A stretch of 32,000 nt of DNA from an uncultured Lentisphaeria bacterium (GTDB lineage: Bacteria; Verrucomicrobiota; Lentisphaeria; JABSQK01; JAJFLO01), in assembly GCA_951812855.1 (NCBI GenBank), contig OX638337.1:870001-902000 (forward strand), read 5' to 3'. The position numbers and the translations under genes were made by a program. Every line of letters begins with the position of its first letter. The first letter of the stretch is position 1. The notes beneath the pieces are model-generated. The model saw only the letters and a list, made by a program, of their open reading frames with translations, was not told where the DNA came from and searched no databases. Shown here piece after piece: positions 2,659 to 31,805 of the stretch.

Positions 2659-2715
2659 GTTTGATTGAGGAATCCAGTCAAACTTTCCCAAACGCTTAAA
2701 CTAAGGGTGATAGGT

Positions 2716-5162: not shown

Positions 5163-6157
5163 AAATATCAGTAATTAGTGACGGAGCCTGGGCTACGGCT
5201 ATCGCATTGTTATTAATTAAAAATAAACACAGCGTCCATCTCTGGGGGCCATTTCCCGAATACATTGAGGAAATGAAATTGACGAGAAAAAACACGCGTT
5301 ATCTCAAAGGACAAGCCCTGCCCGACGAGATAACCCTCACTCATTCTATGAGTGAGGCGATTGACAAAGCTGAGCTCATTGTAATGGCATCTCCCACCCA
5401 ATATGCACGAAAATGCCTTCAGCAAATTTCCGAATTTGGACTGACATCCAACCAAATTATTGTCAATGTTTCAAAAGGGATAGAAACCGGCTCCCTTAAT
5501 CGTATCAGCCAAATCTGCACAGACGTTATTGGAGACATCAATTACGTCGTACTTTCAGGGCCGAGTCATGCCGAAGAAGTTGTAAAAGGTATGCCGACTG
5601 CAGTTGTTGCAGCTTCGGATAATCCAGATATATCACAAAAGGTTCAAAACAGTTTTATGAATCCAGTTTTCAGAGTATATACTACCGGAGATGTGACCGG
5701 AGTAGAATTGGGCGGTGCTCTAAAAAATGTATATGCCATCGCAGCAGGCATAAGTGATGGTATGGGTTTGGGTGACAATTCTAAAGCTGCATTAATTACA
5801 CGTGGCATTGCTGAGATGGCACGACTGGGAGTTGCACTGGGTGGCCGACAGGAAACGTTTTCCGGATTAAGTGGAGTTGGAGACATGATTGTAACGTGTG
5901 CCAGTTCACATAGCCGAAATCGATTTGTTGGAGAACAGATGGGTAAAGGACTTACTCTGAAAGCGATCAAAGAAAAAATGGGATTTGTAGTAGCCGAAGG
6001 AGTTGAAACAACAAAAAGTGCACATGCATTGGCAAAAAAATGGAATGTTGATACCCCGATTATTAACGAAGTGTACTCAGATCTTTATGAAGGTAAAAAT
6101 CCAAAGCATGGGTTAACAGAACTGATGACGCGGAAAGCAAAAACTGAATTTGAATGA
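5159..6157 (+). CDS. gpsA: NAD(P)H-dependent glycerol-3-phosphate dehydrogenase GpsA
   Basis: MKISVI..GAWATA Rossmann-type N-terminus, SKGIE, GPSHAEEV, GGALKNVYAIAAGISDGMGLGDNSKAALITRG. ATGA overlap with the plsY stop. Confidence 0.95.
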   Translation: MKISVISDGAWATAIALLLIKNKHSVHLWGPFPEYIEEMKLTRKNTRYLKGQALPDEITLTHSMSEAIDKAELIVMASPTQYARKCLQQISEFGLTSNQIIVNVSKGIETGSLNRISQICTDVIGDINYVVLSGPSHAEEVVKGMPTAVVAASDNPDISQKVQNSFMNPVFRVYTTGDVTGVELGGALKNVYAIAAGISDGMGLGDNSKAALITRGIAEMARLGVALGGRQETFSGLSGVGDMIVTCASSHSRNRFVGEQMGKGLTLKAIKEKMGFVVAEGVETTKSAHALAKKWNVDTPIINEVYSDLYEGKNPKHGLTELMTRKAKTEFE

Positions 6158-6217: not shown

Positions 6218-7495
6218 ATGTCTATGGATAGTTTTGTCATTGAAGGTGGAAACAGACTCTCCGGAGAAATAACTCCCGGTGGAAATAAAAATGCAGCACT
6301 GCCCATGATCGCAACAGCATTACTGACTGACGAAGAAATTATATTTGAGAATATGCCAGATATTCTTGATGTCAAAACAATGCTCCAAATTGCCGAAGCC
6401 CTGGGTGCGAAAATTAAATTGGAAGAATCGACATTGAGTATTCGCTGCTTTAATATCAACCTGTTTGAAATTCCGCAAAAACTATGCTCAGCAGTTAGAG
6501 CAAGTATACTGTTTATCGCTCCGCTGCTGTTTCGATTGGGAAAGGCAAAAGGTTTTCCTCCTGGCGGAGACGTTATTGGCCGCAGACGGCTTGATGCTCA
6601 TTTTTACGGACTGAGAACATTAGGAGCTGAAATTGACGAAATGGAATTTGAATTTTCAGCTCCAAATGGACTTAAAGCACGCGATTTATTTTTTGATGAA
6701 TCAAGCGTAACAGCAACAGAGCATATCATGATGGCAGCAGCAGTCGCTGATGGTACTACAATTATTAGAAATTCTGCAAGTGAACCCCACGTCCATGACC
6801 TCGCTGTATTGTTAAATAAAATGGGGGCCAAAATTTCCGGACTAAATACAAATACCCTCACGATAACCGGAGTTAAGTCGCTTCACGGGACCAGACACAA
6901 AATTGTATCCGACCATATCGAAGCTGCAAGCTATCTGGCGTTAGTTTCCGCTGCCGGTGGTGGAATTACAGTAACCAATACCGTAAGAAGTCATTACTGG
7001 ATGATTCAGCGAGTCTTTCAGAGATTTAATATTCACCTTGAAATTGGTAGCGATTATATCACTCTTTTACCTGATCAAATACCTGTCATTCAGAGAGACT
7101 CTGGCGGTGCCCTGCCTACAGTAGCAGATGGCCCCTGGCCTCAATTTCCTTCAGATTTAATGAGTACAATGCTGGTACTTGCCACTCAGACGAAAGGGAC
7201 AGTATTGTTTTTTGAAAAAATGTTCGAGAGTAGAATGTATTTTGTCGACAGACTTATTCAAATGGGTGCAAGTACAATTGTATGTGACCCGCATAGAGTC
7301 GTCATATCAGGAAAATCAGAACTGAGAAGTCAACAATTAAGCAGCCCGGATATCCGAGCAGGTATGGCACTGATTATTGCTGCACTGTGTGCAAAAGGCC
7401 AAAGTGAAATCCAAAACGCTGCGATTATTGATCGCGGCTATGAAAAGATGGAGGAAAAGCTAAAATCGATTGGTGCGGTCGTGAATCGAACCTGA
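6218..7495 (+). CDS. murA: UDP-N-acetylglucosamine 1-carboxyvinyltransferase MurA (Asp at the active-site Cys position)
   Basis: FVIEGGNRLSGEITPGGNKNAALP N-terminus, colinear with my recollection of E. coli MurA, and C-terminal IDRGYEKMEEKL. The active-site loop reads PPGGDVIGRRRLD, versus LPGGCTIGARPVD in E. coli. Confidence 0.95.
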   Translation: MSMDSFVIEGGNRLSGEITPGGNKNAALPMIATALLTDEEIIFENMPDILDVKTMLQIAEALGAKIKLEESTLSIRCFNINLFEIPQKLCSAVRASILFIAPLLFRLGKAKGFPPGGDVIGRRRLDAHFYGLRTLGAEIDEMEFEFSAPNGLKARDLFFDESSVTATEHIMMAAAVADGTTIIRNSASEPHVHDLAVLLNKMGAKISGLNTNTLTITGVKSLHGTRHKIVSDHIEAASYLALVSAAGGGITVTNTVRSHYWMIQRVFQRFNIHLEIGSDYITLLPDQIPVIQRDSGGALPTVADGPWPQFPSDLMSTMLVLATQTKGTVLFFEKMFESRMYFVDRLIQMGASTIVCDPHRVVISGKSELRSQQLSSPDIRAGMALIIAALCAKGQSEIQNAAIIDRGYEKMEEKLKSIGAVVNRT

Positions 7496-8222: not shown

Positions 8223-9080
8223 CTAAATCGCCACGTCCGGATGTTCTAAACAAAGTAATCCAAATTTTCCATCTCTAAAATCCTTTATAATTCCGATTGC
8301 GGTTTGCCCTGTATCAATCAACCCGCCTTTTGCCAACTTCCCTTTTTTCAAACCGATTTTATTAATTAGATCTGAAAAATCATCCATATCAGAAATTTTG
8401 TAAAAATCAGCGAATTGGCAACTGCCATTTAATTTTAACTTATATGCAAGATATTCAACAATCAACAACCGGTCAAGTAACCGGTCTTTTATTGCAGCGA
8501 CCAGTGCCAATTTTAAAGCAGATTCAAGATTATCTATTCTGGGTGTCATTATCCCGGGTGAATCAACTAAACTAATATTATCATTAACTTTTATTAACTG
8601 CTGACAACGTGTAACACCGGGTACAGGTCCTGTACATGCTTTGTTTTTATTTATCAAATAATTAATTATAGAAGATTTTCCAACGTTGGGAACACCAATT
8701 ATTAAGACTCTGGTCAAGGTGCAAAATTTCAGTTTTTCTACCTCGGAAATGATCAAATTCAGTAATAATTTTGACGCATTTTTCAAATATTTGTTGACTG
8801 CTATTACGGTTATTTTCTGAGATTTAAAATAATCAATCCATTCATAAAGTGACTCTTCGGGAATATAATCCGTTTTATTAATTATAAGAATGCGAGGTTT
8901 AGATGTGGAAATGTTGTCAAACCGAAAATTTCGAGTTGCCAGTGGTGCCCGAGCATCAACAACTTCAAGAATAATATCAACTTGAGAAATTTTTTTATTA
9001 ATTTCCCGTTCAGCTTTCAGCATATGTCCGGGATACCAGGAAACTGGTGATTCCCCCTTAAATTGTGCCGGTAAGTCCAT
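8223..9080 (-). CDS. rbgA: ribosome biogenesis GTPase A (YlqF/RbgA, circularly permuted GTPase)
   Basis: WYPGHMLKAEREI...VDIILEVVDARAP, then NKTD, then GVPNVGKSSIIN and DSPG in the permuted G4-G1-G3 order. The start at M22 (9080) is preferred over the track start at 9143. Confidence 0.88.
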   Translation of the reverse strand: MDLPAQFKGESPVSWYPGHMLKAEREINKKISQVDIILEVVDARAPLATRNFRFDNISTSKPRILIINKTDYIPEESLYEWIDYFKSQKITVIAVNKYLKNASKLLLNLIISEVEKLKFCTLTRVLIIGVPNVGKSSIINYLINKNKACTGPVPGVTRCQQLIKVNDNISLVDSPGIMTPRIDNLESALKLALVAAIKDRLLDRLLIVEYLAYKLKLNGSCQFADFYKISDMDDFSDLINKIGLKKGKLAKGGLIDTGQTAIGIIKDFRDGKFGLLCLEHPDVAI

Positions 9081-14531: not shown

Positions 14532-15167
14532 TTAGTTTGTATACTTCCGGTGTAAGGCGATGACGATGCCCTGTATTAAAACGTCATCAAAACGGTAGTA
14601 TTGTGAATCATATTTTTCATTTTCAGGACGAAGTTCTATTTTACCGTCTCCTAAATAAAATGTTTTAACTGTCGCTTCATCAGTATCTTTGATCAACGCA
14701 ATGACGATACTTCCGATTTCAGCTGCTGTCTGTTCTTTTGCAATTATTAAATCGCCGTTGTGAATCCCTTTATTGATCATACTATCACCTGAAACATACA
14801 GTCCGTATAATCGCTGCCCGCCTGTTCCCCGGGGAAGCATGGAAGGATCAATCTGAATGGTTTGTTCAATATTCTGTTCTGCAAATAAAGGTAAGCCGGC
14901 ACTGATTCGTCCAAGAATCGGTATGCTGAGATTCATCGAAAGGTGTTTGGGAGATTGATTTCTCGTCAGCAATAAGCTCCTTGCTTTTGAACTGCGGTCA
15001 ATAAATCCCTTTCGCTGGAGAGCTCTTAAATGTGCAAATACAGTTGCTGATGTGATTTGAAAACAATGGGCAATTTCATCAATAGTAGGAGACATACATT
15101 CACGTCGGTTAAACTCGTCAATGAAATCCAAAATATTTTGTTGTTTACGTGTTAATGAACAGCTCAT
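14532..15167 (-). CDS. lexA: SOS repressor LexA
   Basis: N-terminal wHTH (LTRKQQNILDFI...PTIDEIA...SATVFAHLRALQRKGFI), Ala-Gly cleavage site in RISAGLP, catalytic Ser in GDSM and Lys in EATVKTF. Confidence 0.92.
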   Translation of the reverse strand: MSCSLTRKQQNILDFIDEFNRRECMSPTIDEIAHCFQITSATVFAHLRALQRKGFIDRSSKARSLLLTRNQSPKHLSMNLSIPILGRISAGLPLFAEQNIEQTIQIDPSMLPRGTGGQRLYGLYVSGDSMINKGIHNGDLIIAKEQTAAEIGSIVIALIKDTDEATVKTFYLGDGKIELRPENEKYDSQYYRFDDVLIQGIVIALHRKYTN

Positions 15168-20329: not shown

Positions 20330-20637
20330 ATAATATTTCAAAATGATGAACTCAATAACGACGCTGGTTCTTCATGTGAATCAGCCCATAACGATGAAGT
20401 CTTTCAACTCGAAGAAAAATTATATACCCGGTCGGATATTCCTGCCTGTGCTGAATTCCTTGATATTTTAGCCGGAGCTTGTCCTAAAAAAGCTGATTTT
20501 CAATTTTACATTGATTCAATCTGTATTCACAGACAATATGATCTTAACTTAAATCACATTAGAAATTTTTTAAATTTTAAGTAAATATTGCTGCATTCTT
20601 ATCGTGACTATTCCAAAATAACCGAACCATTTACATA

Positions 20638-21765
20638 ATGTTTTATTACCTTCATTTTCTAAGTTCATACGCAGATCAATTATCATTTCTACGTTTATTT
20701 AAATATGTCACGTTTCGTGCAGGTGGTGCAGCATTTACAGCATTTGCTCTCACCGTATTACTGGGACCGCTTACCATTCGACTCCTTACTAAATTACAAA
20801 CAACTGCCCCGCCCCGGGTTGAAGGTATACTTACGGACGAGGAAATTGGAATACGCAAACGTCATGTCCCGACAATGGGAGGAATTCTTTTACTCTTTTC
20901 TATTGTAGCAACTGTTCTTTTATGGGCAATTCCCACGAATTCTTTAGTAATTGTATTCCTGGGACTGTTACTTTTATTGGGCCTCGTTGGATTTGTTGAC
21001 GATTACCTCAAAGTTAAATTCCAGAATAAGGATGGTCTGGCAGGACGTTGGAAACTGGTTCTTCAATTCGCAATCGGGGGACTGGCAGTCTGGTGCCTTC
21101 ACCTTGTCCCGGAAACCGGAGGAAATATTACTAAACTAATGCTTCCGTTTCTGAAACAACCGATAATTGAAAATACCGGAATTATATTTGCACTGTTATT
21201 TGGTTCAACAGTTGTCGTTGCTTCCTCAAATGCAGTAAATCTGAGTGATGGAATGGATGGTCTGGCAATCGGCTGCACAATTATCTGTGCTCTTGCTTAT
21301 GCATGTTTCGCCTATTTTTGTGGTCACAAATATTTAGCTATGTATCTAAATATACCTTTTATTCCCGGAAGCAGTGAAGTTGTCGTTATCGCTGTATCGG
21401 TAGTAGGTGCAGGATTGGGTTTTTTATGGCACAACTGCTATCCGGCAGCCATGTTCATGGGAGATACAGGCAGTTTAAGTATCGGTGGTGCGATCGGATT
21501 AATCGCAGTTCTTGTTAAACAGGAAATATTGTTAATTGTCGTTGGAGGAATATTTGTGATTGAAGCCGGTTCAGTGATCCTTCAGGTCGCCTACTTCAAA
21601 CTTACACGATATTTCACCGGGGAAGCAAAACGTCTATTCTTATGTGCACCGATACATCACCACTTCCACAAAACCGGTTGGAAAGAAACACAAATAGTTA
21701 TTCGTTTCTGGATAATAGCAATTCTATTAGCGTTCATCGGGCTGGCAACATTAAAGGTGAGATAA
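20638..21765 (+). CDS. mraY: phospho-N-acetylmuramoyl-pentapeptide transferase MraY
   Basis: FKYVTFRAGGA, PTMGG, GFVDDYLKV, NAVNLSDGMDGLA, MGDTGSL, APIHHHF motifs. Polytopic membrane profile. Confidence 0.95.
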   Translation: MFYYLHFLSSYADQLSFLRLFKYVTFRAGGAAFTAFALTVLLGPLTIRLLTKLQTTAPPRVEGILTDEEIGIRKRHVPTMGGILLLFSIVATVLLWAIPTNSLVIVFLGLLLLLGLVGFVDDYLKVKFQNKDGLAGRWKLVLQFAIGGLAVWCLHLVPETGGNITKLMLPFLKQPIIENTGIIFALLFGSTVVVASSNAVNLSDGMDGLAIGCTIICALAYACFAYFCGHKYLAMYLNIPFIPGSSEVVVIAVSVVGAGLGFLWHNCYPAAMFMGDTGSLSIGGAIGLIAVLVKQEILLIVVGGIFVIEAGSVILQVAYFKLTRYFTGEAKRLFLCAPIHHHFHKTGWKETQIVIRFWIIAILLAFIGLATLKVR

Positions 21766-22386
21766 AAAATCTGAGCCAGGATAAAATATCCTGCTATAAG
21801 CTCACGACACATTACTTTTTTACAATCCTGTCACCACGCTTTGTTCGGACGATTCCAAGATCCTGTCCATCTATAACACCATCAAAATTTAAATCATATT
21901 CAACTGTTTTTTTATCGGGAGACATCTGCATGGCGTGTACTCGAATTGCAATCATACCACCACGTATCAACCGGTGATATGTCGTTAACCTCTCCAAAAG
22001 TCAAATCAAAATTCAAGGTCTTATCTCCGCCAGGCGGTGTAACCAAAGAATCCCGAATAATTTGCAGTAAATGAAAGCTGATAAGAATTGAGTATTAAAT
22101 CTAATAAATCAATATTCGCTTTTACGATCGGCGTATCATTCTCTATAATTCTGTCACGGGGTACATCCGTAAAATCAATTCTCAATTCTCGGGTCCCGCT
22201 CCGGGCCGACACCAGGAGAAGTGAAATTACAGAAAGAAAGCTACACCCCCGAGCAGGGGGAGAATGAGATTACGTGAGTAGATCAATAATGGAGACTATT
22301 AATTCCAGATTTGCCAGTGACTCATGCGATTTAGTGGATTAATCAGTCTCTATAGGTCCTGAATCTCTTTCATAAATGTAAACGCT

Positions 22387-22986
22387 TTAATGTTTATCAA
22401 GAACATTGAATCTCTGAATATATTTACCAATCATATCCATTTCCAGATTCACTGACATGCCAATAGCGGATTGTCTTAAATTGGTATTCTTTAGAGTGTC
22501 GGGAATGATGTGAACTGTAAATGAGCTGTCCTTTACAGCAACCACAGTTAATGATATACCATCAATTGCGATACTTCCTTTCTTGACGATCAATGCAGTA
22601 AATTCTGAAAGAAGTTCAATCTCAATAACTCTATCGTTATGGAAATCAATAATATCCAAAATTGCCCCTGTACAATCGATATGCCCAGAGACAAAATGAC
22701 CATCTAACCGGTCGCCAATTCTCAATGCACGCTCCAAATTAACCTCAGCACCACTATCTAATGACCCTAGATTGGTTTTTTTCAATGTCTCAGCTAACGT
22801 ATGAAACTGAATCGCGTTTTCATCGTGTTTAATTCTGTTTACCGTCAAACATACACCATTGACGGCAATGCTCTGACCAAGTTTAACGTTATCAGCCCAC
22901 GGTACTGCAACCAACAATTTTTCGCCATCGGCAACTCTTGAACGCGACAAGAATTTTCCAGTATTTTCAATGCATCCGGTGAACAT
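22387..22986 (-). CDS. ribE: riboflavin synthase (alpha chain)
   Basis: MFTGCIENTG N-terminus and a duplicated lumazine-binding half-domain (GQSIAVNGVCLTV / GSIAIDGISLTV). Overlaps the ribD stop. Confidence 0.92.
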   Translation of the reverse strand: MFTGCIENTGKFLSRSRVADGEKLLVAVPWADNVKLGQSIAVNGVCLTVNRIKHDENAIQFHTLAETLKKTNLGSLDSGAEVNLERALRIGDRLDGHFVSGHIDCTGAILDIIDFHNDRVIEIELLSEFTALIVKKGSIAIDGISLTVVAVKDSSFTVHIIPDTLKNTNLRQSAIGMSVNLEMDMIGKYIQRFNVLDKH

Positions 22987-24016
22987 CAGTCAAATATCCT
23001 GTTATTAAATAATCGCAACCTGAGCGAGTGATTTTCATATCGTTTATACCTCTGGCTTCGGTTAAACTATCCGGATTAAATCCACCAATTACCGTTCGAC
23101 TGTCTTTACCACCTAATAATTTTGGTGCGACAAATATCGCAACCTTATCAATTAAATTGTAATGTAACATTTGGCCGGCCAATTCTCCACCACCCTCAAC
23201 CATTAGCGACATCACATTTTCGTTACCCAGTTTTTTAAAATACTCTTCCCAATCAGCAGCGGACTTGCAGCACACTATATCGACCGGGGTATTCTTATCA
23301 GAGAAAACACATGCTGCCGGGTCTATGTTTCGGCTTTTACTCACGATAATTTTTCGCGGCTGATTTTGCCAATTCTCAGGTTGTCTGACGCACAGCTGCG
23401 GGTCATCCTGTCGAATTGTTTCTGCACCGACCATAATTGCATCAGCCCGTTGGCGCATATGTTGAACTTTGGTGCGTGATGCTTTACTGGAAATCCACTG
23501 TGAATTCCCGCCTTTAGTCGCAATTTTTCCATCTAAGGTCATTGCCATTTTCAATAAAACATAAGGTCGTTTATGTTGTATCCAACAAAAAAAATCTTCG
23601 TTTAGCTGTTGTCCTTTGTCATCTTCAACACCAACGACTACCTCAATCCCCTCGTCTTTCAGTAACTTAACAGCACCGCCTCGATGACTGGGATTAGGAT
23701 CTAATGTGGAAATAACAACCTTTTTTATCTTTGCCTCAATGATTGCGTTTGTACACGGCGGTGTCTTCCCCCGGGTTGAACAGGGTTCCAATGACACATA
23801 TAACGTAGAATCTGCTGCATGAACTCCTGCATTTTGAATTGCATCAATCTCAGCATGAACCTCACCGGCTTTCTTGTGCCACCCTTTCCCAACGATAACA
23901 TTATTCTTTACAAGCACGGCTCCAACCATCGGATTCGGTGACGTTTTTCCCCATCCCTTTTTCGCCAGCGTTAAAGCCCGCCTCATCCATTTAACTTCAT
24001 TTGTCATAAGATCCAT
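22967..24016 (-). CDS. ribD: bifunctional riboflavin biosynthesis protein RibD (deaminase/reductase)
   Basis: HAEIDAI and LEPCSTRGKTPPC zinc-deaminase motifs. C-terminal reductase domain (LKMAMTLDGKIA, MVEGGGELAG). Confidence 0.93.
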   Translation of the reverse strand: MDLMTNEVKWMRRALTLAKKGWGKTSPNPMVGAVLVKNNVIVGKGWHKKAGEVHAEIDAIQNAGVHAADSTLYVSLEPCSTRGKTPPCTNAIIEAKIKKVVISTLDPNPSHRGGAVKLLKDEGIEVVVGVEDDKGQQLNEDFFCWIQHKRPYVLLKMAMTLDGKIATKGGNSQWISSKASRTKVQHMRQRADAIMVGAETIRQDDPQLCVRQPENWQNQPRKIIVSKSRNIDPAACVFSDKNTPVDIVCCKSAADWEEYFKKLGNENVMSLMVEGGGELAGQMLHYNLIDKVAIFVAPKLLGGKDSRTVIGGFNPDSLTEARGINDMKITRSGCDYLITGYLTDVHRMH

Positions 24017-24097
24017 TTTAAGCTTAGAAATTTTGTTTCGTAATCCAACAATGACTGTTTCCCGATTTTAATTCATTATTGATTCGAATTTCCGAAT

Positions 24098-24616
24098 TCA
24101 CTTTTTCCTGCTTTTCTCATCCTGAATTTTATTCCATTCATCGATATACTTTAATGCAATCATTTTATCTGTTATCTGAACCAAATTTTCCCAGTTTGAA
24201 TGGGTTGCAGCTTTGGTAAAATTATAGCTGCCTGTTAATACTGTTTTTTTATCTATTACAACAAACTTATTATGCATCGAGTGATGTTTCAGCATGGATA
24301 TATACTCAATGTCTAAATTTTTTGATTTCAGTAAATCAAAAACCGATTTGCTGTAATTATAAGACGCCTGTTTCTTATCAACTTTTAATTTTACCGAGAT
24401 ACCCTCTTTTGATTTTTTTATGAGTGCCCTGGCAATTTTTTTATTAGAAAACGAATATACAGCAACCAATATTTCAAATTTTGCTGACTGAATATTTTTC
24501 AGCAAAATAGTTTCGCACTCTCCTCTAAATGCTGTCCGAACAGTCTTGGAATGACCTGCACTTATCCACGTAAATAATAATATAATAATGAATAGTATTC
24601 TTGATTGGCGAATCAT
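24098..24616 (-). CDS. secreted PLD-superfamily (single HKD) Nuc-like endonuclease
   Basis: Signal-peptide-like N-terminus (ILFIIILLFTWISAGHS) when started at M13. One HKD motif, HNKFVVIDKKTVLTGSYNFT. Size and layout resemble the Nuc/BfiI-type PLD nucleases. Confidence 0.85.
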   Translation of the reverse strand: MIRQSRILFIIILLFTWISAGHSKTVRTAFRGECETILLKNIQSAKFEILVAVYSFSNKKIARALIKKSKEGISVKLKVDKKQASYNYSKSVFDLLKSKNLDIEYISMLKHHSMHNKFVVIDKKTVLTGSYNFTKAATHSNWENLVQITDKMIALKYIDEWNKIQDEKSRKK

Positions 24617-24941
24617 AAATCCACTTCTGTCCAGGCAGTTTGTGCCGGCCATTGAAAAATGTTAAAATTCATAAAATATTACACTGACCAATGCAATATC
24701 AATTCATCTATATTGGAGTGATGGCGTTGATCACGCATTATTGATAAAAGGCATGTCGCCACTATAACTTCAAAATGAATTGAAATTTCGTAATACTCAA
24801 GTAACTGAATAAAGAACTGGACATATATTCCTTTAAGTCTAAAATGCCATGTAAAATTCTCCCCCTAATTAATAGTGACAGTCTTGCCATTTTGATTTTA
24901 ATATCTGACAGACTGCAGCATACAATCAGGATAAATATTTC

Positions 24942-27788
24942 ATGAACAAAGAGTTCATAATCGGCCAACGCTGGTACAGTGAATCTGAACCGGAATTAGG
25001 ATTAGGTTCCGTTATTTCTGTAAATACCAGAAGTGTAGAAATTAATTTTGAAAACCGAAATATAACACGCTCCTATGCAAGTGAATCAGCACCTCTTCGA
25101 CGACTGAAGTTTACAATGGGTGACAGTATTACTGCCGTTGACGGACGATCTTTGATTGTCGATAGCATTAAAGAGGAAAATGGACTTTTAATTTACTCGG
25201 GGTCAGGTGAATCAATCCATGAATCGCTTTTAAGTGAAAACGTTGATTTTACCGGTTCCGAAGAGCGTTTGATTATGGGCATTTTTGATTCAAATGAAAT
25301 TTTCAATCTGAGATTTCAGGCATTATCAAAACGCAGCTGGCTTCATATGCTTCCCGTCCAGGGATTACTGGGTGCAAGAATTTCTCTTTTACCTCACCAA
25401 CTCTATATCGTATCAGAAGTATCATCGAGATACCATGTGCGAGTCATGCTCGGAGATGAAGTGGGATTGGGAAAAACAATTGAAGCAGGATTAATTCTGT
25501 CGCGGCAACTATTATCAGGCACAGCTAATCGAATCCTTATTATATTACCTGAATCATTGACACACCAGTGGTTTCTCGAACTTTGGCGTCGTTTTAATCT
25601 TACGTTCAGTATATTCGATGAGGAACGATGTACGGCAATACAAACTGCTGAGCCGGAATCAAATCCATTTTCAGACAGTTCACTGGTAATATGCAGTTTA
25701 AATTTTTTGATCAAAAACCCGAAACGCATGAAAGAGATTTGTGATATCGATTGGGATTTTTTGGTCGTTGATGAAGCACATCATCTTCAATGGAGAGAAA
25801 AGAATCCAAGTCCTGAATATCAGCTGATACAAAATCTTGCTAATAACATTCCCGGCATTTTGTTACTTAGCGGAACTCCTGAGCAATTAGGTGAAGACGG
25901 CCATTTTGCCCGATTGCATCTACTCGACTCAAAACGGTTTTATGATCTCAAAAAGTTTAAAGAAGAACAAATAAACTACACAACAGTCGCCAATATCATC
26001 GATAAACTGATATCTGGAAAATCGTTAACTGCATCTGAACAAAACAATCTCAGCAAAAATTATCATTATGATCCGGACAGACTACTTGACCTTTTACAAC
26101 GGATAAAGAAAAAAGATAATATTGCTCAGGAACAGTTAATCTCTGAACTTGTAGATCATCACGGAACCGGAAGACTGTTCTACCGAAACCATCGTCGCAG
26201 TATTCCCGGGTTTCCTAAACGAATCGCCAAATTTTACCCCGTAAAATTTAATGATGCGTGTAGTAAGATTTATGACCCGTCGATTTTCCATATCCTTCCG
26301 GAATTTCAGATTTCTTCGAGATTACGGAAAAATTGGTGGCGTCATGATCCGAGATTAGAAACAGTAATATCTGTTTTGAATAACGCTCCTCACGAAAAAA
26401 TATTACTGATTTGTGCGTCACCGGATACTGTTCAGGCAATTCAAGGTGAAATTGAACAAAGGATCAGTATCCCCATGGCCGTCTTTCACGAAGAATTGTC
26501 ATTAATCGTACGCGATCGTAATGCAGCATATTTCGCTGATCCCGATGGTGCACGCCTCCTTATCTGTTCAGAAATTGGCAGTGAAGGAAGAAACTTTCAG
26601 TTCTGCCACCATCTCATATTATTTGATTTGCCTGAGAATCCTGAGCTGTTAGAACAACGTATTGGACGTCTTGCACGAATTGGACAAAAGAACGACGTCA
26701 TAATTCATATTATCTATCTCGAACAAACAATTCAGGAAGTACTTGCAACATGGTACGGTGAAGGACTTAATGCATTTTGTGAACCGCTTCAGGGAGCGAA
26801 TAAATTATTTCAAGAACTGGGCAGTTGCGTAAAAGAGTTTGCCTGTGAATGGATAAAGAAAAAAAACCCCGAGCAATTAAAAGAACTTATTGACCGCACC
26901 AAAAAATCAAAGTCCGTTGTCACTGAAAAAATGGCAGCCGGCAGAGATTGGTTATTGGAATGGCACTCACATCAACCCGCCATTGGTGCTGCTTTAGTAG
27001 AGAAAGTCGAAGACATTGAAGCTCATTCCAATCTTCCGGCATTTATGGATTTTATGTGTAACCACATTGGAATTCGAGTCGAAGATCATGACCATAACAG
27101 TTTATTTTATGTACCGGGTGATCATTACCACGGCTTACCGGGACTGCCGGATACAGGTATTCCAATAACATTCAGCCGTCAACGGGCTATTGCCAGAGAA
27201 GATATTACATTTTTAACCTGGGAGCACCCAATTGTGACAGGGGCAATTGACCAACTCCTGGGTTCAGCTAACGGACGATCATCTTATGCCGTTTGGGAAG
27301 ATCAGGAAAATCGTATTATCTATATCGAATCAATTTTTATGGTGCACACGACCGCACCGGAAGATTTGCGTCCAGATAGATTTTTACCGGCAACTCCGCT
27401 ACGAGTTATGGTTCGCCATGATGGTTCAGATGTCAGTAATAAAATTACTCACGAAAAACTTTTCGACGTTCTTAAAGATGATAGCAATGCACCCTTGCTT
27501 AAAAAAACTGAATTGACTCAACAGCTGTTTCCGCATCTGATTAAACAATGCCGAAATCTGGCAGAAATAAAAAAAAATGAATTGGTGGAAAAAGCTGTTT
27601 CAATTATGCAATCAACAATACAACCGGAAATTGACCGCCTCACAACTCTTCTTGCAGCAAACGCACCGATTCGCAAAGAAGAAATTGATCATCTCAGCGA
27701 TGAGCTTAATCAATTACAGAACTATTACATGAAATCCGTTGTCAAACTTGATGCCGTTCGACTAATATGGCGTGGGCCCGGCACATAA
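24942..27788 (+). CDS. rapA: RNA polymerase-associated Swi2/Snf2 ATPase RapA (HepA)
   Basis: Colinear over its full length with my recollection of E. coli RapA: IGQRWYSESEPELGLGSVISV N-terminal Tudor-like fold, LLPHQL, LGDEVGLGKTIEAG, LVVDEAHHL, LLLSGTPEQLG, SEIGSEGRNFQF, LLEQRIGRL.RIGQ, ITFLTWEHP. Confidence 0.93.
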   Translation: MNKEFIIGQRWYSESEPELGLGSVISVNTRSVEINFENRNITRSYASESAPLRRLKFTMGDSITAVDGRSLIVDSIKEENGLLIYSGSGESIHESLLSENVDFTGSEERLIMGIFDSNEIFNLRFQALSKRSWLHMLPVQGLLGARISLLPHQLYIVSEVSSRYHVRVMLGDEVGLGKTIEAGLILSRQLLSGTANRILIILPESLTHQWFLELWRRFNLTFSIFDEERCTAIQTAEPESNPFSDSSLVICSLNFLIKNPKRMKEICDIDWDFLVVDEAHHLQWREKNPSPEYQLIQNLANNIPGILLLSGTPEQLGEDGHFARLHLLDSKRFYDLKKFKEEQINYTTVANIIDKLISGKSLTASEQNNLSKNYHYDPDRLLDLLQRIKKKDNIAQEQLISELVDHHGTGRLFYRNHRRSIPGFPKRIAKFYPVKFNDACSKIYDPSIFHILPEFQISSRLRKNWWRHDPRLETVISVLNNAPHEKILLICASPDTVQAIQGEIEQRISIPMAVFHEELSLIVRDRNAAYFADPDGARLLICSEIGSEGRNFQFCHHLILFDLPENPELLEQRIGRLARIGQKNDVIIHIIYLEQTIQEVLATWYGEGLNAFCEPLQGANKLFQELGSCVKEFACEWIKKKNPEQLKELIDRTKKSKSVVTEKMAAGRDWLLEWHSHQPAIGAALVEKVEDIEAHSNLPAFMDFMCNHIGIRVEDHDHNSLFYVPGDHYHGLPGLPDTGIPITFSRQRAIAREDITFLTWEHPIVTGAIDQLLGSANGRSSYAVWEDQENRIIYIESIFMVHTTAPEDLRPDRFLPATPLRVMVRHDGSDVSNKITHEKLFDVLKDDSNAPLLKKTELTQQLFPHLIKQCRNLAEIKKNELVEKAVSIMQSTIQPEIDRLTTLLAANAPIRKEEIDHLSDELNQLQNYYMKSVVKLDAVRLIWRGPGT

Positions 27789-27982
27789 TTTCCCTGCTGC
27801 CAATGATAAGAAAGTCTATGACACATTATTCAAAAGCTTAAAAGAAAATCTACTTTGACCACTCCTCAAGAGAGAAAAGAATTTGAAGTAGAATTATTTG
27901 CAGGCAGAATACAAGCAACTCAGACTGAAATACAAAACTTGAATCAAATGATGAAAGTTCAGATAATCTGTCAATTTGACAG

Positions 27983-28058
27983 GTTTAACCCAATATGAAA
28001 GCAATAATGCATGAAAATAAGTTCAATATAAAATTTTTCCTTATACTAAATGTTATGT
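27983..28058 (+). repeat. possible degenerate attC (or attI-like) site marking the left edge of the array
   Basis: GTTTAAC (27983-27989, fits RYYYAAC) ... GTTATGT (28052-28058). The latter is the exact complement of the ACATAAC box that opens the sites at 29194 and 31459. Internal pairing is weak and AT-rich. Confidence 0.25.
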
Positions 28059-28064
28059 TCTACT

Positions 28065-28268
28065 ATGGAGTCTAAGATAAAAGTTATTTTTACAATTTTA
28101 TTAGTTGTTATTTGTAACGTGGCAAATGCTGTGCCTAGTTGGGTAAATGAAAGTATCAGAAATCTTAGTTCTTCTGATGAAAAAGCTCAGAGAAAAGCAG
28201 CGTTTTGGCTTTCAGGGTATTTTACGGATAACGGTTCAGAGTCAGATCCACAAATAATCGATGTTTAA
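28065..28268 (+). CDS. small secreted protein (signal peptide plus one HEAT-like repeat)
   Basis: KIKVIFTILLVVICNVANA-VPS looks like a signal peptide. NLSSSDEKAQRKAAFWLSG resembles a HEAT/PBS-lyase repeat. No obvious RBS. Start taken at the second Met of the track ORF. Confidence 0.45.
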   Translation: MESKIKVIFTILLVVICNVANAVPSWVNESIRNLSSSDEKAQRKAAFWLSGYFTDNGSESDPQIIDV

Positions 28269-28299
28269 TTAAACTAGGTATATATAAGAAGGAGTTTCA

Positions 28300-28731
28300 A
28301 TGAGTACCAAACAAATTCATGTGTTTATAAGCCACTCCTGGGCTTACTCAACCCATTACAACACACTATCCGACTGGATCTTTAATGGTAATTGGAGTGT
28401 TAGTCAAGCTTCCCTTGATCTAAGGGACTATTCAGTTCCAAAAGACGACCCCATTCATGATGCATCAAATGATACACAATTAAAAAATGCAATATATGAC
28501 AAAATATCACGCTCACACGTAATAGTCATACCAACTGGTATGTACGCCAACTATAGCAAGTGGATAAAGAAGGAAATTGAAGGAGCTGATTCATATAGTA
28601 AGCCAATTCTTGCAGTTAATCCTCATGGGCAAGAAAAAAAGGCCGGTGTTGTTGTAGATAACGCGGATAAATTCTCGGGGTGGAATAAACAACCAATCAT
28701 TAATGCCATTTGGAAGTTATACAATCAATGA
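28300..28731 (+). CDS. TIR-like domain protein (DUF1863 / ThsB-like small TIR)
   Basis: Strong RBS (AAGGAG). HVFISHSW at the N-terminus (beta-A), DYSVPKDDPIH, VIVIPTGMYANYSKWIKKEIEGA (the S-x-W-x3-E motif, Glu92 at nt 28573-28575), KPILAVNP. This pattern is recalled from the small bacterial TIR-like family often annotated as 'molecular chaperone Tir'/TIR domain-containing. Confidence 0.75.
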   Translation: MSTKQIHVFISHSWAYSTHYNTLSDWIFNGNWSVSQASLDLRDYSVPKDDPIHDASNDTQLKNAIYDKISRSHVIVIPTGMYANYSKWIKKEIEGADSYSKPILAVNPHGQEKKAGVVVDNADKFSGWNKQPIINAIWKLYNQ

Positions 28732-29168
28732 GCGATAAATCTGAGAATCTAGCGGTTTACGGTATTTATGTTCAAACGATTACTGCAAACGAGCAAAGGC
28801 GACAAGCCTTAGCTGCTTTTTACCTTTCTTTGGTTGCCGCAGGCATTGCGTTATTGGCGTCTGATGAAATAACTCAATATGTTGCTATTGCAATACCAAT
28901 ATCAATCGTTTCTATTGTCTGGTTTTCTACAATTAAGTACTTTAGAAATTTGGCTAAGGCCAAATTTAAGGTCATCGAAGAGTTGGAAAATGACTTTGTT
29001 ATCAAGCCTTTCGCCAAGGAATGGGAGTTCTACAAATCTGGTGGAAGTAGGTTTAAAATTAGTCTCACCCATATTGAGCTAATTATACCAGTAATGATTT
29101 TTATAGTTTCAACTTTATATGTTTTATATTCGTTCTACCAGTTTATAAAATTATGGTTTGAGTGCTAG
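28728..29168 (+). CDS. 3-TM membrane protein, putative effector partner of the TIR-like protein (SLATT-like topology)
   Basis: The ATG at 28728 overlaps the TIR-gene TGA (ATGA). An N-terminal amphipathic helix (YVQTITANEQRRQAL) is followed by a tight TM hairpin (AAFYLSLVAAGIALLAS / YVAIAIPISIVSIVWFS), a basic helical linker and a third TM (IELIIPVMIFIVSTLYVLYSFY). No soluble sensor domain is present. Confidence 0.6.
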   Translation: MSDKSENLAVYGIYVQTITANEQRRQALAAFYLSLVAAGIALLASDEITQYVAIAIPISIVSIVWFSTIKYFRNLAKAKFKVIEELENDFVIKPFAKEWEFYKSGGSRFKISLTHIELIIPVMIFIVSTLYVLYSFYQFIKLWFEC

Positions 29169-29193
29169 TGCGTAGTCGGTTGCGTAATTTATC

Positions 29194-29306
29194 ACATAAC
29201 AAATTTGTCATAGGGACATTTTTGCAGTGCTCCGTTTTGCGGTGGCTGTGCCACTTTACCGCAAAACTACACAACCCCAAAAATGCCCCATACAAAGGCG
29301 TTATAC
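29194..29306 (+). repeat. attC recombination site (113 bp)
   Basis: ACATAAC-AAA-TTTGT(C)AT.GGG.CATTTTTG ... CAAAAATGCCCCAT-ACAAA-GGC-GTTATAC. The arms pair with unpaired (extrahelical) bases and enclose an inner 10-bp stem, GTTTTGCGGT/ACCGCAAAAC. It ends 22 nt before the next ORF's ATG. Confidence 0.6.
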
Positions 29307-29327
29307 CCACAAGGAGAATTAAGAAGC

Positions 29328-29756
29328 ATGAAAGAGCAAGAATACGCAGGGTTTTGGATTAGATTCGGTGCAGAGCTAATCGACTTAGTAATAAGGATTA
29401 TCGTTCTGTGTGTCCCGCTTTCGTTTATTTATGGCGAAGAATACTATGGTTTTTGGCGTGTGCTGTTGGGAGATATTGTTCCCATGGTTGCAACAGTTTG
29501 GTTTTGGCTACGTTTTTTTGGAACACCACGAAAAATGGCAACTAAACTAAAAATCGTCGATGCAAAAACAGAAAATAAACTATCTCTCGGGCAAGCTATC
29601 GGTAGATATTTTGCCTATATACCAGCATGGCTACCATTAGGGCTAGGGGTTATCTGGGTTGGTATAGACAAAAAGAAACAAGGCTGGCATGACAAATTAG
29701 CCGGTACCGTTGTCATCAGAACCAATGAGTCAGAGCCAGTAAATTTCGATGAATAA
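29328..29756 (+). CDS. RDD-family membrane protein
   Basis: AAGGAG RBS before the ATG at 29328. YAGFWIRFGAELIDLVI, TPRKMATKLKIVD, GWHDKLAGTVVI: the three signature R/D/D positions and the TM pattern of the RDD family. Confidence 0.85.
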   Translation: MKEQEYAGFWIRFGAELIDLVIRIIVLCVPLSFIYGEEYYGFWRVLLGDIVPMVATVWFWLRFFGTPRKMATKLKIVDAKTENKLSLGQAIGRYFAYIPAWLPLGLGVIWVGIDKKKQGWHDKLAGTVVIRTNESEPVNFDE

Positions 29757-29839
29757 GGTATAAGCACTCGGACAGCAAAAAGCGTTGCTTTTTGTTCCCT
29801 CCGCTGCGCTCCGGCTGTCCGCTTAGCTTGGCGTTAAGT
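29752..29839 (+). repeat. probable attC site (degenerate R'' box)
   Basis: TAAGC(ACT)CGGACAGC ... GCTGTCCGCTTA outer stem, inner hairpin AAAAAGC-GTT-GCTTTTT, ending in GTTAAGT (29833-29839, fits GTTRRRY) 17 nt before the next ATG. The 5' box (AATAAGG/TATAAGC) lacks a clean AAC. Confidence 0.4.
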
Positions 29840-29855
29840 GTCTTAAGAGGAAATT

Positions 29856-30242
29856 ATGCAAATTCTAGGATTCATTGTTTTTCTGAATGTATCGCATCTT
29901 GGAGTAATGCAAATTTTTCGCCTTACTACCTGTCATGCGTATTTTTGTAAGGCGATCCCCTTATTAATTCTTTACGGTGCTGGTGTTGCATGGGTTCTCT
30001 TTGCTCTGGGAATGCACCCATTCTTTTTGTGGCAGCTAATTCTAGCTTCAATTTGGCTGTTTGTTATTGGCCGCAAACAAACCAAAATGGCAGAGGCCAT
30101 GCTGTCAATGGCAGGTGAAGATGCAGATTCAGTGCGTTTAATCGCTGTATCTACTGTAAAAACAATCCGTTACTATACATATAGTTCATTTGTCTATGTT
30201 GCAGTATTCTCAGGCACATATATTTGGCTATACAACACTTAA
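29856..30242 (+). CDS. hypothetical polytopic membrane protein (single-gene cassette)
   Basis: RBS AGAGGA. 128 aa with 3-4 hydrophobic helices. No family recognised. Its stop codon lies inside the R'' box of the following attC. Confidence 0.55.
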   Translation: MQILGFIVFLNVSHLGVMQIFRLTTCHAYFCKAIPLLILYGAGVAWVLFALGMHPFFLWQLILASIWLFVIGRKQTKMAEAMLSMAGEDADSVRLIAVSTVKTIRYYTYSSFVYVAVFSGTYIWLYNT

Positions 30243-30308
30243 CAAGGCCAGCCAGAGGGGTGACAAAACCGCTGCACGCTTTTGTCACCCTGCTGGCGGG
30301 CGTTAGGC
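30237..30308 (+). repeat. canonical attC recombination site (72 bp)
   Basis: R'' ACTTAAC (RYYYAAC), L'' GCCAG(C)CAG, 10-bp stem GGTGACAAAA/TTTTGTCACC around an 11-nt loop, L' CTGCTGGC, R' GTTAGGC (GTTRRRY). One arm carries unpaired bases. The upstream ORF's TAA is embedded in R''. Confidence 0.8.
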
Positions 30309-30328
30309 AAAAATTAAGGAAATAAGCT

Positions 30329-31189
30329 ATGTCAACAACCGCAATTGTATTCATTATCGCAACAATATTATTTTTTATATTGGCATTTTTAGGGATAAAA
30401 ATAGTTCCCCAGAGTGAAAATCACGTTGTTGAGAGGTTTGGTAAATATAGAAAGACCTTGAAAGCGGGTTTGAATTTTGTAGTACCGTTACTTGATAGGA
30501 TTGCAAAACGCTTAAGCATTCTTGAACGGCAATTGCCCGAAAAACCACATGATGTTATCACTAAAGATAATGTTACGATAGTTATAACAAACACCATATT
30601 CTTTAGAATAATTGATGCAGGGAAGGCTGCATATAGAATTCATGATTTGGAAGGTGCCATAAGTAATGCTGTTACTGGCACAGTCCGTTCTATTATTGGA
30701 GCCATCGAATTCGATGAGGTTCAGTCTCATAGAGAGCAAATTAATCAAAAGATTAAATCGAGTCTTGAAGAAACATGTTCCGATTGGGGAGTAGATGTTA
30801 CTCGCACTGAGATATTGGATGTCCAAGTTGATCAAAAAACCCAAACAGCAATGCATCTCCAAATTAGTGCCGAGCGTGATAGGCGTGCATCAGTGATGGA
30901 AGCAGAAGGTAAGAAAAAATCAATGGAGCTAGAGGCGGATGCAGCTCTCTATGCCGCACAAAAACAAGCTGAAGCCAAAAGAATGCTTGCAGATGCCGAT
31001 GCTTACGCAACAAAAACAATCGCAGAAGCAATCAATAATGAAGGGGCATCAGCTATTCAATTTGAAATACAAAAAAAGCAAGTAGAGGCAATTGGAGAAC
31101 TTTCGAGTTCTAATAACGCCAAAGTAATCCTACTACCAAATGATATCATAAGTGCATTAACTTCACTCCCTAATATATTTGGAAAATGA
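30329..31189 (+). CDS. SPFH/band-7 (stomatin/QmcA-like) membrane protein
   Basis: N-terminal TM anchor, then VPQSENHVVERFGKYRKTLKAGLNFVVP...DVITKDNV...AISNAVTGTVRSIIG...R..I.....L......WGV.V..TEI.DV, and an Ala/Glu/Lys-rich coiled coil. Confidence 0.9.
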   Translation: MSTTAIVFIIATILFFILAFLGIKIVPQSENHVVERFGKYRKTLKAGLNFVVPLLDRIAKRLSILERQLPEKPHDVITKDNVTIVITNTIFFRIIDAGKAAYRIHDLEGAISNAVTGTVRSIIGAIEFDEVQSHREQINQKIKSSLEETCSDWGVDVTRTEILDVQVDQKTQTAMHLQISAERDRRASVMEAEGKKKSMELEADAALYAAQKQAEAKRMLADADAYATKTIAEAINNEGASAIQFEIQKKQVEAIGELSSSNNAKVILLPNDIISALTSLPNIFGK

Positions 31190-31455
31190 ATATGGAAATC
31201 CTGTATTCAATAAATTTTTGGCTGATTGTTGGGTTTTTTCTCGCTATTTTAGAAATATTTTCAGGCTTATTTATTGCACTGTGTTTTTCTGTGGCTAGCT
31301 TTCTTATGGCAATAGTATTTTGGTTGTGGCCTAACATTGGCATAGAATGGTATGAGATTATATTTCTACATTCATTTATTGGTTTTTCTGTAGCATCACT
31401 TACATGGCTGAAACTCCGAAGAAATCAAAAGGAACTTCCAGACATTAATGACTAA
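31186..31455 (+). CDS. NfeD-like membrane protein lacking the OB-fold domain
   Basis: ATGA overlap with the SPFH stop. 89 aa. FWLIVGFFLAILEIFSGLFIAL resembles the NfeD membrane module. Gene order matches qmcA-ybbJ. There is no C-terminal beta-rich domain. Confidence 0.55.
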   Translation: MNMEILYSINFWLIVGFFLAILEIFSGLFIALCFSVASFLMAIVFWLWPNIGIEWYEIIFLHSFIGFSVASLTWLKLRRNQKELPDIND

Positions 31456-31458
31456 ATC

Positions 31459-31502
31459 ACATAACCAGTGCATCCAGCCGACCGCTGGAAGCACAGTTCG
31501 TA
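31459..31502 (+). repeat. possible short or truncated attC site
   Basis: ACATAAC (identical to the box at 29194) followed by the CAGTGCATCCAGC-CGACC-GCTGGAAGCACAG hairpin (11/13 bp), then GTTCGTA. Shorter than typical attC sites, and the R' box is non-canonical beyond GTT. Confidence 0.35.
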
Positions 31503-31520
31503 TAAAAAGGTCATTTTATA

Positions 31521-31805
31521 TTAAAGTTCAGTCGCGTTGTTGAAGCTCATCGTATATCTTCCAGCGTCCCGTTGGTCACTGATTCCGAGTAATCGCTCAG
31601 CTTCCTCTATGGAGGAGGCATTGAAGATATCCCGAATATCCTGTGCGACCTCACAACGCATTTCTTTCTCAGGTACGTAAGCCGTGGCATTGTACTGAAG
31701 GTGAACCTGGCAGCGTTTCCGGGGAAAAACCTCCTCTGACGGTTGTTAGATCAGACAATACGACTTGTCCAGTCTACCCCCTCCGAAGTGCCCGGTCCCT
31801 TGTAA
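31521..31805 (-). pseudogene. IS256-family (Mutator-type) transposase internal fragment
   Basis: The reverse strand reads ...GRLDKSYCLI*QPSEEVFPRKRCQVHLQYNATAYVPEKEMRCEVAQDIRDIFNASSIEEAERLL, then a frameshift. This matches my recollection of the IS256/IS1081 core (vFP...QRC.vH..RN....VPk.....va.dl..IF.a.....A). It has internal stops, spans fewer than 100 codons, has no ends, and is visibly more GC-rich than its flanks. Confidence 0.7.

Follow-up and report, generated by a model that had tools for sequence, protein, structure and literature searches.

Downstream from rapA in an uncultured Lentisphaeria bacterium, a run of small genes alternates with palindromic sites. We analyzed this locus within a 32,000-nucleotide stretch of DNA (assembly GCA_951812855.1, contig OX638337.1, positions 870,001 to 902,000; hereafter the window, in whose own coordinates all positions are given). 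The segment 27972-31558 of the plus strand comprises the whole run, and it is very probably an integron cassette array without an integrase (CALIN) that is carried by one strain. The host genome is AT-rich and measures ~1.94 Mb; the array itself is 3.58 kb long, with a GC content of 38.1% versus 37.2% in the core. An identical array was present on three contigs of the source long-read metagenome assembly (ENA ERZ18545485). The rapA gene stops at 27788 and is followed by seven plus-strand open reading frames (ORFs), each preceded by a Shine-Dalgarno-like sequence. The four cassettes (A to D) are all oriented in the same way as rapA, and the palindromic sites (S1 to S4) have a GC content of 0.44-0.60 versus 0.33-0.41 in the ORFs of the array. 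The original prediction, made from the letters alone, had described short same-strand ORFs with ribosome-binding sites between GC-richer palindromes, which is indeed what the region contains. It had also reported an abrupt change of gene style from ~28.05 kb; the change is real, but it starts at the junction with the sequence of a sister strain, the exact position of which is ambiguous within 27972-27976, near the 27983 at which the prediction had its region begin. The features of the locus are as follows (aa, amino acids; nt, nucleotides).

28065-28268, plus strand: ORF67, 67 aa, with a signal-peptide-like N-terminus; a gene call on the source contig
28300-28731, plus strand: first gene of cassette A, ThsB-like TIR protein, 143 aa (Pfam ThsB_TIR, PADLOC ThsB)
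28728-29168, plus strand: second gene of cassette A, 8xMP-family membrane protein, 146 aa (Pfam PF24838)
29194-29306, plus strand: S1, intact attC of 113 nt (covariance model, fold)
29328-29756, plus strand: cassette B, RDD-family membrane protein, 142 aa (Pfam RDD)
29758-29839, plus strand: S2, decayed attC (alignment with comparator loci L089 and L092)
29856-30242, plus strand: cassette C, membrane protein of 128 aa (cassette homologues; Pfam search without a match)
30237-30308, plus strand: S3, intact attC of 72 nt (two covariance models, fold)
30329-31189, plus strand: first gene of cassette D, SPFH/Band 7 (stomatin-like) protein, 286 aa (Pfam Band_7)
31186-31455, plus strand: second gene of cassette D, membrane protein of 89 aa (ORF list; co-conserved with the SPFH gene)
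31459-31558, plus strand: S4, remnant of the last attC (R'' box, 5' half)
31587-31718 (about), minus strand: internal fragment of an IS256/Mutator-family transposase (Pfam Transposase_mut), outside the array

In an attC site, the bottom strand forms a hairpin whose paired R and L boxes and extrahelical bases are bound by the integron integrase, which cuts at G↓TT in the R' box (the arrow marks the crossover point). Two of the sites, S1 and S3, carry this architecture. S1 reads ACATAAC-AAATT-TGT-C-ATAGGG-A-CATTTTTG...CAAAAATG-CCCCAT-ACA-AAGGC-GTTATAC, in the order R''-spacer-L''-...-L'-spacer-R', and the extra bases C and A on its R''-L'' arm correspond to the extrahelical G and T of a textbook attC on the bottom strand. 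S3 reads ACTTAAC-AAGGC-CAG-C-...-CTG-GCGGGC-GTTAGGC; its further extra bases lie on the same R''-L'' arm as the extra C, and the stop codon TAA of the cassette C ORF falls inside its R'' box. The inverted pair of R'' (RYYYAAC) and R' (GTTRRRY) boxes, with AAC and GTT present, was thus found in S1 (ACATAAC/GTTATAC) and in S3 (ACTTAAC/GTTAGGC), while S2 has GTATAAG without the AAC and S4 has no R' box. An L box, an unpaired spacer, and extra arm bases were likewise present in S1 and S3 when the sites were aligned to a covariance model (R2, see below).

When folded as single-stranded DNA and compared with shuffled sequences, the bottom strand of S1 (29190-29310) reached -26.6 kcal/mol (z -4.9) and that of S3 (30233-30312) reached -23.4 kcal/mol (z -5.5). 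S1 and S3 were also the sole strong R''...R' palindromes of the 32 kb in a scan that combined a regular expression with folding, a crude and noisy procedure that served as a sanity check only. The original prediction had called 30237-30308 a textbook attC and had recognized the same R-L...L-R logic with unpaired bases at 29194-29306; both readings are borne out by the boxes and the folds, as well as by the covariance models.

Two covariance models of attC sites, R1 and R2, were built, both solely from sites outside the window. Class 1 arrays on plasmids were located via IntI1 (100% identity to the annotated intI1). R1 was trained on the attC sites of aac(6')-29a, blaVIM-2, aacA4, aadB, aadA2, and dfrA27 together with four sites from arrays that carry homologues of the cassettes, with the variable loops trimmed, and it imposes the geometry R'', 5-nt spacer, L'', extra base, 6 bp, extra base, 6 bp, L', 6-nt spacer, R'. 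R1 was run over the whole window with its filters off and gave a single match below E = 1, namely S3 (30237-30308, plus strand, 27.2 bits, E 2.4e-4, full model length); on genuine attC sites outside its training set, R1 scores 14-32 bits. R2 was built from 23 R1 matches in comparator loci (designated by L numbers), and L090 and L091 were left out of it, so that no relative of S1 was among the training sites. R2 matched S3 with 47.9 bits (E 2e-10) and S1 with 45.1 bits (E 1e-9), both at full length and on the plus strand only. The minus strand of S3 scored 10.7 bits, and no other stretch of the 32 kb scored above 11 bits with R2. Held-out true attC sites scored 35-39 bits with this model, and in the negative control, 1.6 Mb of unrelated rapA loci, there was one match of at least 20 bits. 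Both sites on which the original prediction had staked its claim are therefore matched significantly. The single match of the control lies at 19768-19842 of L062 (Desulfocicer vacuolatum DSM 3385), scores 40 bits, and may itself be a real attC near rapA.

We also aligned S1 and S3 with further attC sequences, 34 sites in all. In this alignment 88% of the cells were paired, versus 62% for shuffled sequences and no more than 41% for slid controls; the covariation score was 0.60, versus 0.15 in shuffles, and changes on both sides were seen in 18 of the 22 pairs. Because the alignment was fitted to the model, these pairing and covariation figures lean towards structure. The TAAC/GTTA pairs were kept in 30-34 of the 34 aligned sequences.

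Intergenic hairpins that are richer in GC than their surroundings could also be terminators or a dispersed repeat of the repetitive extragenic palindromic (REP) type rather than recombination sites. This explanation is scarcely credible. A terminator scan of the region gave four terminator-like matches (2.9 expected), none of which was an attC hairpin followed by a T run; the sole match inside a site was a 5-pair minus-strand stem in S1. An Rfam scan of the window found two tRNAs only and no family at the sites. The four sites are mutually dissimilar and have no copies in the other 28 kb, in the flanks, or in the contigs that extend the window, which excludes a REP-like repeat, the alternative against which the original prediction had asked to be checked. 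Furthermore, the model scores are strand-specific, and the same genes carry attC sites at the same boundaries elsewhere. S1 and S3 are thus better read as attC sites.

The genes between the sites were then compared with those of other loci. The first protein of cassette A matches Pfam ThsB_TIR (E 1.4e-15) and PADLOC ThsB (E 6e-9) and has 1426 homologues at E <= 1e-5; the best 120 of the 1426 are 69-95% identical to it. In the loci examined, the gene of the TIR homologue was always followed by that of a small membrane protein. Here, the start of the 8xMP gene (Pfam PF24838, E 2.5e-22) overlaps the stop codon of the TIR gene (ATGA), and the pair shows 75% DNA identity to L090 4708-5523 and likewise to L091. 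In L090, an attC (38.4 bits) with a 5' end similar to that of S1 comes after the cassette A homologue. For cassette A, the comparison supports the 3' boundary only. Upstream from the TIR-8xMP cassette, L090 (4329-4410, minus strand) and L091 (864-935) contain a short ORF that ends in ...SSPFLRSVVEAIRVRHYS. The similarity of the L090 ORF to the N-terminus of IntI1 (43% over 30 aa) does not reach significance (E 25), but the ORF may be what is left of an intI, in which case the TIR cassette would occupy the first position. ORF67, which precedes the TIR gene in the window, had no Pfam match and no homology in any comparator locus, nor does it resemble the DUF5334 gene upstream of the TIR gene of L092, whose counterpart it might have been. 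ORF67 is perhaps part of cassette A.

The RDD protein of cassette B (Pfam RDD, E 8e-19) has a close relative in L089: window 29298-29798 is 79% identical in DNA to L089 7971-8498, where the gene lies between two attC sites. The homology begins at the R' box of S1 and extends into S2, and the upstream attC differs. L089 also contains, at ~5905-6043, 6520-6680, and 8545-8665, three occurrences of an ORF-less element of ~120 bp (...GCTTAACAAGGCGGTAAGCA...CAACGTCGTTAGG), possibly an empty cassette or else a mobile sequence inserted in attC sites.

The cassette C protein has 44 homologues; where an organism is named, it is Denitromonas, Halomonas, or Arenimonas. L087 (Arenimonas fontis) has the homologue as the third cassette after a truncated IntI (49% identity to IntI1 over 114 aa), next to attC sites of the aadB type; L085 (Halomonas sp. 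HAL1) has it in a long same-strand array that includes toxin-antitoxin cassettes. An R' box precedes the ATG by 13-16 nt in the window, L085, and L087 (in the window, the ATG lies 16 nt after the R' box of S2). In the window and L087, the stop codon falls within R''; the L085 ORF stops at a TGA that is not immediately followed by an attC.

The SPFH protein of cassette D (Pfam Band_7, E 6e-31) is 69-79% identical to proteins of the marine metagenome loci L094-L101, and in L098 an attC (38.6 bits) ends 26 nt before the homologue. The gene of the 89-aa membrane protein overlaps the stop codon of the SPFH gene and is co-conserved with it in L094, L096, and L099; the protein occupies an NfeD-like position and has no Pfam match. 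An NfeD-FloA (flotillin) pair is already encoded in the core genome (window 2185-3717); the SPFH protein of cassette D and its small membrane partner form another such pair, unrelated to the first.

Cassettes B, C, and D are bounded by G↓TT points: their homology to L089, L085/L087, and L094/L098, respectively, starts a few to ~25 nt past the R' box (for cassette B, at R'), and the upstream neighbours of the homologues differ between arrays. In DNA, the cassettes are most closely related to AT-rich contigs from marine metagenomes. Taken together, all four cassettes have homologues in other cassette arrays and, judged by these sequence comparisons, they are integron gene cassettes.

The two remaining sites survive as non-functional remnants. 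S2 retains a canonical 3' half (L' GCTTAGC, spacer TTGGC, R' GTTAAGT) and is homologous both to the attC behind the RDD homologue of L089 (8449-8541) and to the one that follows a TIR-SLATT gene pair in L092 (8862-8948). When aligned with these two sites, S2 lacks 9 nt (GGTATAAC-AATCACATG-CACTCGG has become GGTATAAG-CACTCGG); the deletion takes the last base of R'', the spacer, and L'', and leaves an R'' that reads GTATAAG. S2 scored 4.8 bits with R2 despite the presence of both homologues in the training set, and the stretch 29745-29845 folds at -15.3 kcal/mol (z -1.5), no better than shuffles. Within its 3' half (29818-29836), S2 shares 18 nt (CCGCTTAGCTTGGCGTTA) with the hybrid attC that follows aac(6')-29b in a class 1 integron cassette of a Pseudomonas aeruginosa plasmid (L130 4730-4835).

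The R'' box of S4 (ACATAAC) lies three bases past the stop codon, and an R'' box is equally placed in L094 (ACATAAC) and L096 (ACCTAAC). The 5' half is canonical (CAGTG, CAT, C, CAGCCG, A, CCGC...), but S4 has no recognizable L' or R' and ends at the strain junction. Its R2 score was 8.3 bits (31459-31557, E 5), and the bottom strand of 31455-31510 forms a short local hairpin only (-11.2 kcal/mol, z -4.7). An inverted repeat of 18 nt, 78% complementary, pairs 31474-31491 in the 5' half of the decayed S4 with 31558-31575, the first bases of the right flank that is shared with the sister strain. We rejected S4 as a long attC formed by this pairing, because its right arm is part of the shared flank and is not followed by an R' box, and because the pairing is absent from the minimum-free-energy fold. 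The motif GTTCGTATAA in S4 was likewise rejected as an IS256 terminal repeat, as the nearby transposase piece is internal (positions 251-293 of the 379 of the profile) and belongs to the flank common to the array-free strain. The original prediction had listed 29752-29839 and 31459-31502 as weaker sites. The first fails as a working attC and stands as the decayed homologue of a real one; the second covers no more than the 5' portion of the decayed S4.

At the left end of the array, the interval 27983-28058 was tried as an attC or attI and discarded (no structure, 2-3 bits, fold z +0.7), and 27789-28064 contains no IntI remnant and no attC- or attI-like structure. The original prediction had noted that ACATAAC recurs at 29194 and 31459 and that its exact complement, GTTATGT, lies at 28052. 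This recurrence is no greater than chance: the heptamer has 7 matches versus 4.5 expected, with 21 of 100 shuffles equal or better. The GTTATGT copy, which lies 6 nt before ORF67 and ~80 bp inside the strain-specific segment, is not supported as a cassette boundary.

We searched for an integron integrase by tblastn with IntI1 and the IntI of L087, in six frames, over the window and over contigs L001 and L088, which extend it by ~10 kb to the right. Nothing better than E ~1 was found, either for an intI gene or for a pseudogene. Twenty upstream ORFs were scanned with Pfam; six had no match and all the others were housekeeping genes. The upstream 28 kb include NfeD-FloA, PlsY, GpsA, AroA, a lytic transglycosylase, QueA, SmpB, LexA, ClpP, a lipid A acyltransferase, riboflavin genes, and RapA. 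In agreement with the original prediction, no similarity to a recombinase or to IntI was thus detected in the 28 kb to the left of the array. The LexA repressor gene (14532-15167, minus strand) lies 13 kb upstream of the array; LexA controls intI expression in many integrons.

A CALIN is defined as a group of two or more same-strand attC sites spaced by under 4 kb, with no integron integrase nearby (Cury et al. 2016, PMC4889954). S1 and S3 are ~1 kb apart, both on the plus strand, and no IntI similarity was detected from 28 kb upstream to ~10 kb downstream. A complete integron would have intI, attI, and a cassette promoter (Pc) upstream of the first cassette; neither an IntI remnant nor an attI-like structure was found in 27789-28064. 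With the cassette homologues in other arrays, these findings support the CALIN-like interpretation of the original prediction. Several points weigh against it. The covariance models are home-made rather than those of IntegronFinder; their E-values are rough, so that we relied on bit scores and on the empirical control. The alignment behind R2 was fitted to an assumed geometry. Two of the four proposed sites pass the model, and S2 and S4 fail. The word integrase-less covers only the neighbourhood, from 28 kb upstream to ~10 kb downstream. Finally, the left end of the array shows no recognizable attI or attC that would mark the 5' boundary of cassette A. Even so, we hold the CALIN assignment with high confidence. 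CALINs are common (2961 in 21,105 complete genomes; Loot et al., bioRxiv 10.1101/2022.09.11.507474) and integrons have already been reported in Verrucomicrobia (Cury et al. 2016, PMC4889954); thus, the element itself is not new.

From their structure, S1 and S3 could still recombine with an integrase provided in trans. Since S2 is dead, cassettes B and C would move as one unit and could leave only jointly, via S1 x S3 recombination. Cassette A has no upstream site and cassette D no downstream site, so that both would be fixed in place. As there is no Pc and no attI, expression would depend on read-through from rapA or on internal promoters. The array displays what looks like decay in progress, with a 9-nt deletion in S2, the 3' loss of S4, and a fused two-gene "super-cassette" between two sites that appear to be live.

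How did the array come to lie behind rapA? A sister strain from the same metagenome sample, found via the RapA protein cluster, is represented by contig L137 (1,941,460 bp). The flanks of the two strains are 99.5% identical: window 20473-27976 corresponds to L137 5532-13034, and the window from 31559 onwards corresponds to L137 from 13880. Between them, L137 13035-13879 holds 845 bp with one NERD-domain gene in place of the 3.58-kb array, and no attC match was found in 22.8 kb of L137. The array is missing from a strain with 99.5% identical flanks and has therefore arrived, or been retained, recently. The comparison with close relatives that the original prediction had proposed thus shows a sister locus that is free of the array but filled by another segment. 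The nearest RapA in species-representative genomes is 77% identical and belongs to a metagenome-assembled genome labelled Verrucomicrobia (L004), and the next, at 59%, is labelled Lentisphaerales; the genes after rapA in L004 are unrelated, which makes this locus unusable as an empty-site control. Judged by this one protein, the host probably belongs to the Planctomycetes-Verrucomicrobia-Chlamydiae (PVC) group.

The origin of the array is not settled. Two alleles, the array and the NERD segment, share both junctions between nearly identical flanks, and this would fit the import of the array from another strain as a single block, exchanged through homologous recombination between the conserved flanks, as part of the turnover of a hot-spot island and with no integrase action in this genome. 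The GC content of the array matches that of the core, so the donor would have been compositionally similar, and AT-rich marine contigs are the closest DNA relatives of the cassettes. We put this account forward tentatively, as one possibility: with two alleles only, and no third strain, shared junctions are automatic and say nothing about mechanism.

The decay of the array points in another direction. The deletion in S2 and the loss of the 3' part of S4 fit a loss of selection for recombination, as would be expected if the array were the relic of an integron that once resided here, with an intI-attI module to the left, between rapA and cassette A, removed by deletion or rearrangement, and with cassettes that have since decayed. 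Integrase loss and rearrangement mediated by insertion sequences (IS) are listed among the routes to CALINs (Cury et al. 2016, PMC4889954). The shared right flank is a zone of gene decay that contains fragments of an IS256 transposase and of an ndh-like gene. The IS256 remnant noted in the original prediction is real (Pfam Transposase_mut, 24.1 bits, E 2e-5, profile 251-293 of 379), but the same sequence is present in the array-free L137. It lies in a flank common to both strains, it is not tied to the array as a border, and the IS did not make the array edge. Just past the right end of the window (~+37 to +312; L001 11715-11990), a 91-aa ORF looks by eye like a C-terminal piece of a type II NADH dehydrogenase (ndh-like), without a Pfam match. 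Against a resident integron, no IntI-like remnant was detected in any frame and only ~90 bp separate the left junction from the first ORF. Moreover, a sister strain with 99.5% identical flanks and a different insert between the same junctions fits replacement of a whole block better than slow decay. We consider a resident integron somewhat unlikely.

An integrase encoded elsewhere, or present transiently, could also have inserted the cassettes in trans at a secondary site (attG, GWT) downstream from rapA. IntI inserts cassettes at GWT sites across genomes, and this has been proposed as the origin of small CALINs and of single attC sites without an integrase (SALINs) (Loot et al., bioRxiv 10.1101/2022.09.11.507474). 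The GTTATGT heptamer before ORF67 would suit such a site. Against this, GTTATGT lies inside the segment rather than at its edge and the ACATAAC/GTTATGT motif is not enriched; the junctions show no G↓TT signature (the right one reads ...ATATC↓TTCC, the arrow here marking the junction), and four cassettes would need several successive events. Insertion in trans is rather unlikely.

Two further features of the junctions were observed. A palindrome (CTGTCAA-T-TTGACAG, 27967-27983) spans the left junction, with its left arm in the shared flank and its right arm specific to the array. At the right junction of L137 there is an imperfect direct repeat (TTCAGGTCCCGTT and TTCCAGCGTCCCGTT); a degenerate copy of it occurs in the window (TTCAGTCGCGTT, 31527-31538), where it precedes the right junction by 20 nt.

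Whatever its route, a cassette array without an integrase that separates two strains has some use as a dated snapshot: the two co-occurring strains differ by this block only, which makes the array placeable in time. Its first cassette also gives a lead towards a possible role in defence. ThsB-type TIR proteins that are 74-85% identical occur with two unrelated partners, namely 8xMP in the window (28300-29168) and L090 (4721-5589), and SLATT_1/DUF4231 in L092 (8001-8867) and L093. The L092 TIR protein is 74% identical to that of the window and is paired with a SLATT_1 protein, and the 8xMP protein has no detectable sequence similarity to the SLATT protein of L092. A sequence search of the Protein Data Bank (PDB) with the TIR and 8xMP proteins returned no matches, and a literature search on 8xMP returned nothing relevant. 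The pair of a ThsB TIR protein and the SLATT effector ThsH is a validated defence system, type VII Thoeris, and 8xMP is not named as a Thoeris effector in the paper that describes it (bioRxiv 10.64898/2025.12.03.692087). Cassette A resembles type VII Thoeris in being a two-gene operon with a ThsB-type TIR gene followed by that of a small membrane protein, and differs from it in that the partner is 8xMP (PF24838) instead of SLATT. By homology, TIR-8xMP versus TIR-SLATT may represent an effector swap carried on integron cassettes. It was recently found that integron cassettes carry phage-defence systems, and the TIR-8xMP pair would add a candidate defence cassette to these.

These strands can be drawn together: an integrase-free host with a small genome from the PVC group would very recently have gained, as ready-made blocks, cassettes from a pool common to marine Gammaproteobacteria, and cassette A would be an undescribed Thoeris-type system with a swapped effector. 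As a joint claim this is unlikely. If true, it would mean that integrase-free lineages receive cassettes as ready-made blocks from a pool that they have in common with marine Gammaproteobacteria.

Among known systems, SALINs and attG insertions (Loot et al., bioRxiv 10.1101/2022.09.11.507474) resemble our locus in that chromosomal cassettes lie away from attI and integrase, whereas here there are several cassettes, and junctions without the G↓WT crossover signature. With class 1 cassettes (aadA2, aadB, blaVIM-2, aacA4, dfrA27), S1 and S3 share the order R''-5 nt-L''-extra base-6 bp-extra base...L'-5/6 nt-R'; the array differs from them by having no resistance genes, no Tn402/3'-CS context, and no IntI1. 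Sedentary arrays, such as that of Halomonas sp. HAL1 (L085) and the Vibrio superintegron, likewise consist of small same-strand ORFs between attC sites, and one of them carries a homologue of cassette C. In contrast to them, our locus has only four cassettes and no integrase, attI, or Pc was found; its intact attC sites differ from each other in length (113 and 72 nt) and in sequence, whereas the repeats in large sedentary arrays are homogeneous and species-specific. The closest likeness is to the CALINs already described. Our array departs from these in that its sites were called with home-made models, in its two further decayed sites, in its polymorphism between co-occurring strains, and in its host, seemingly a PVC-group bacterium with a genome of 1.94 Mb. 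It shares with them two or more same-strand attC sites within 4 kb of each other, no nearby intI or intI pseudogene, a small size, cassettes mostly of unknown function, and an IS fragment close by.

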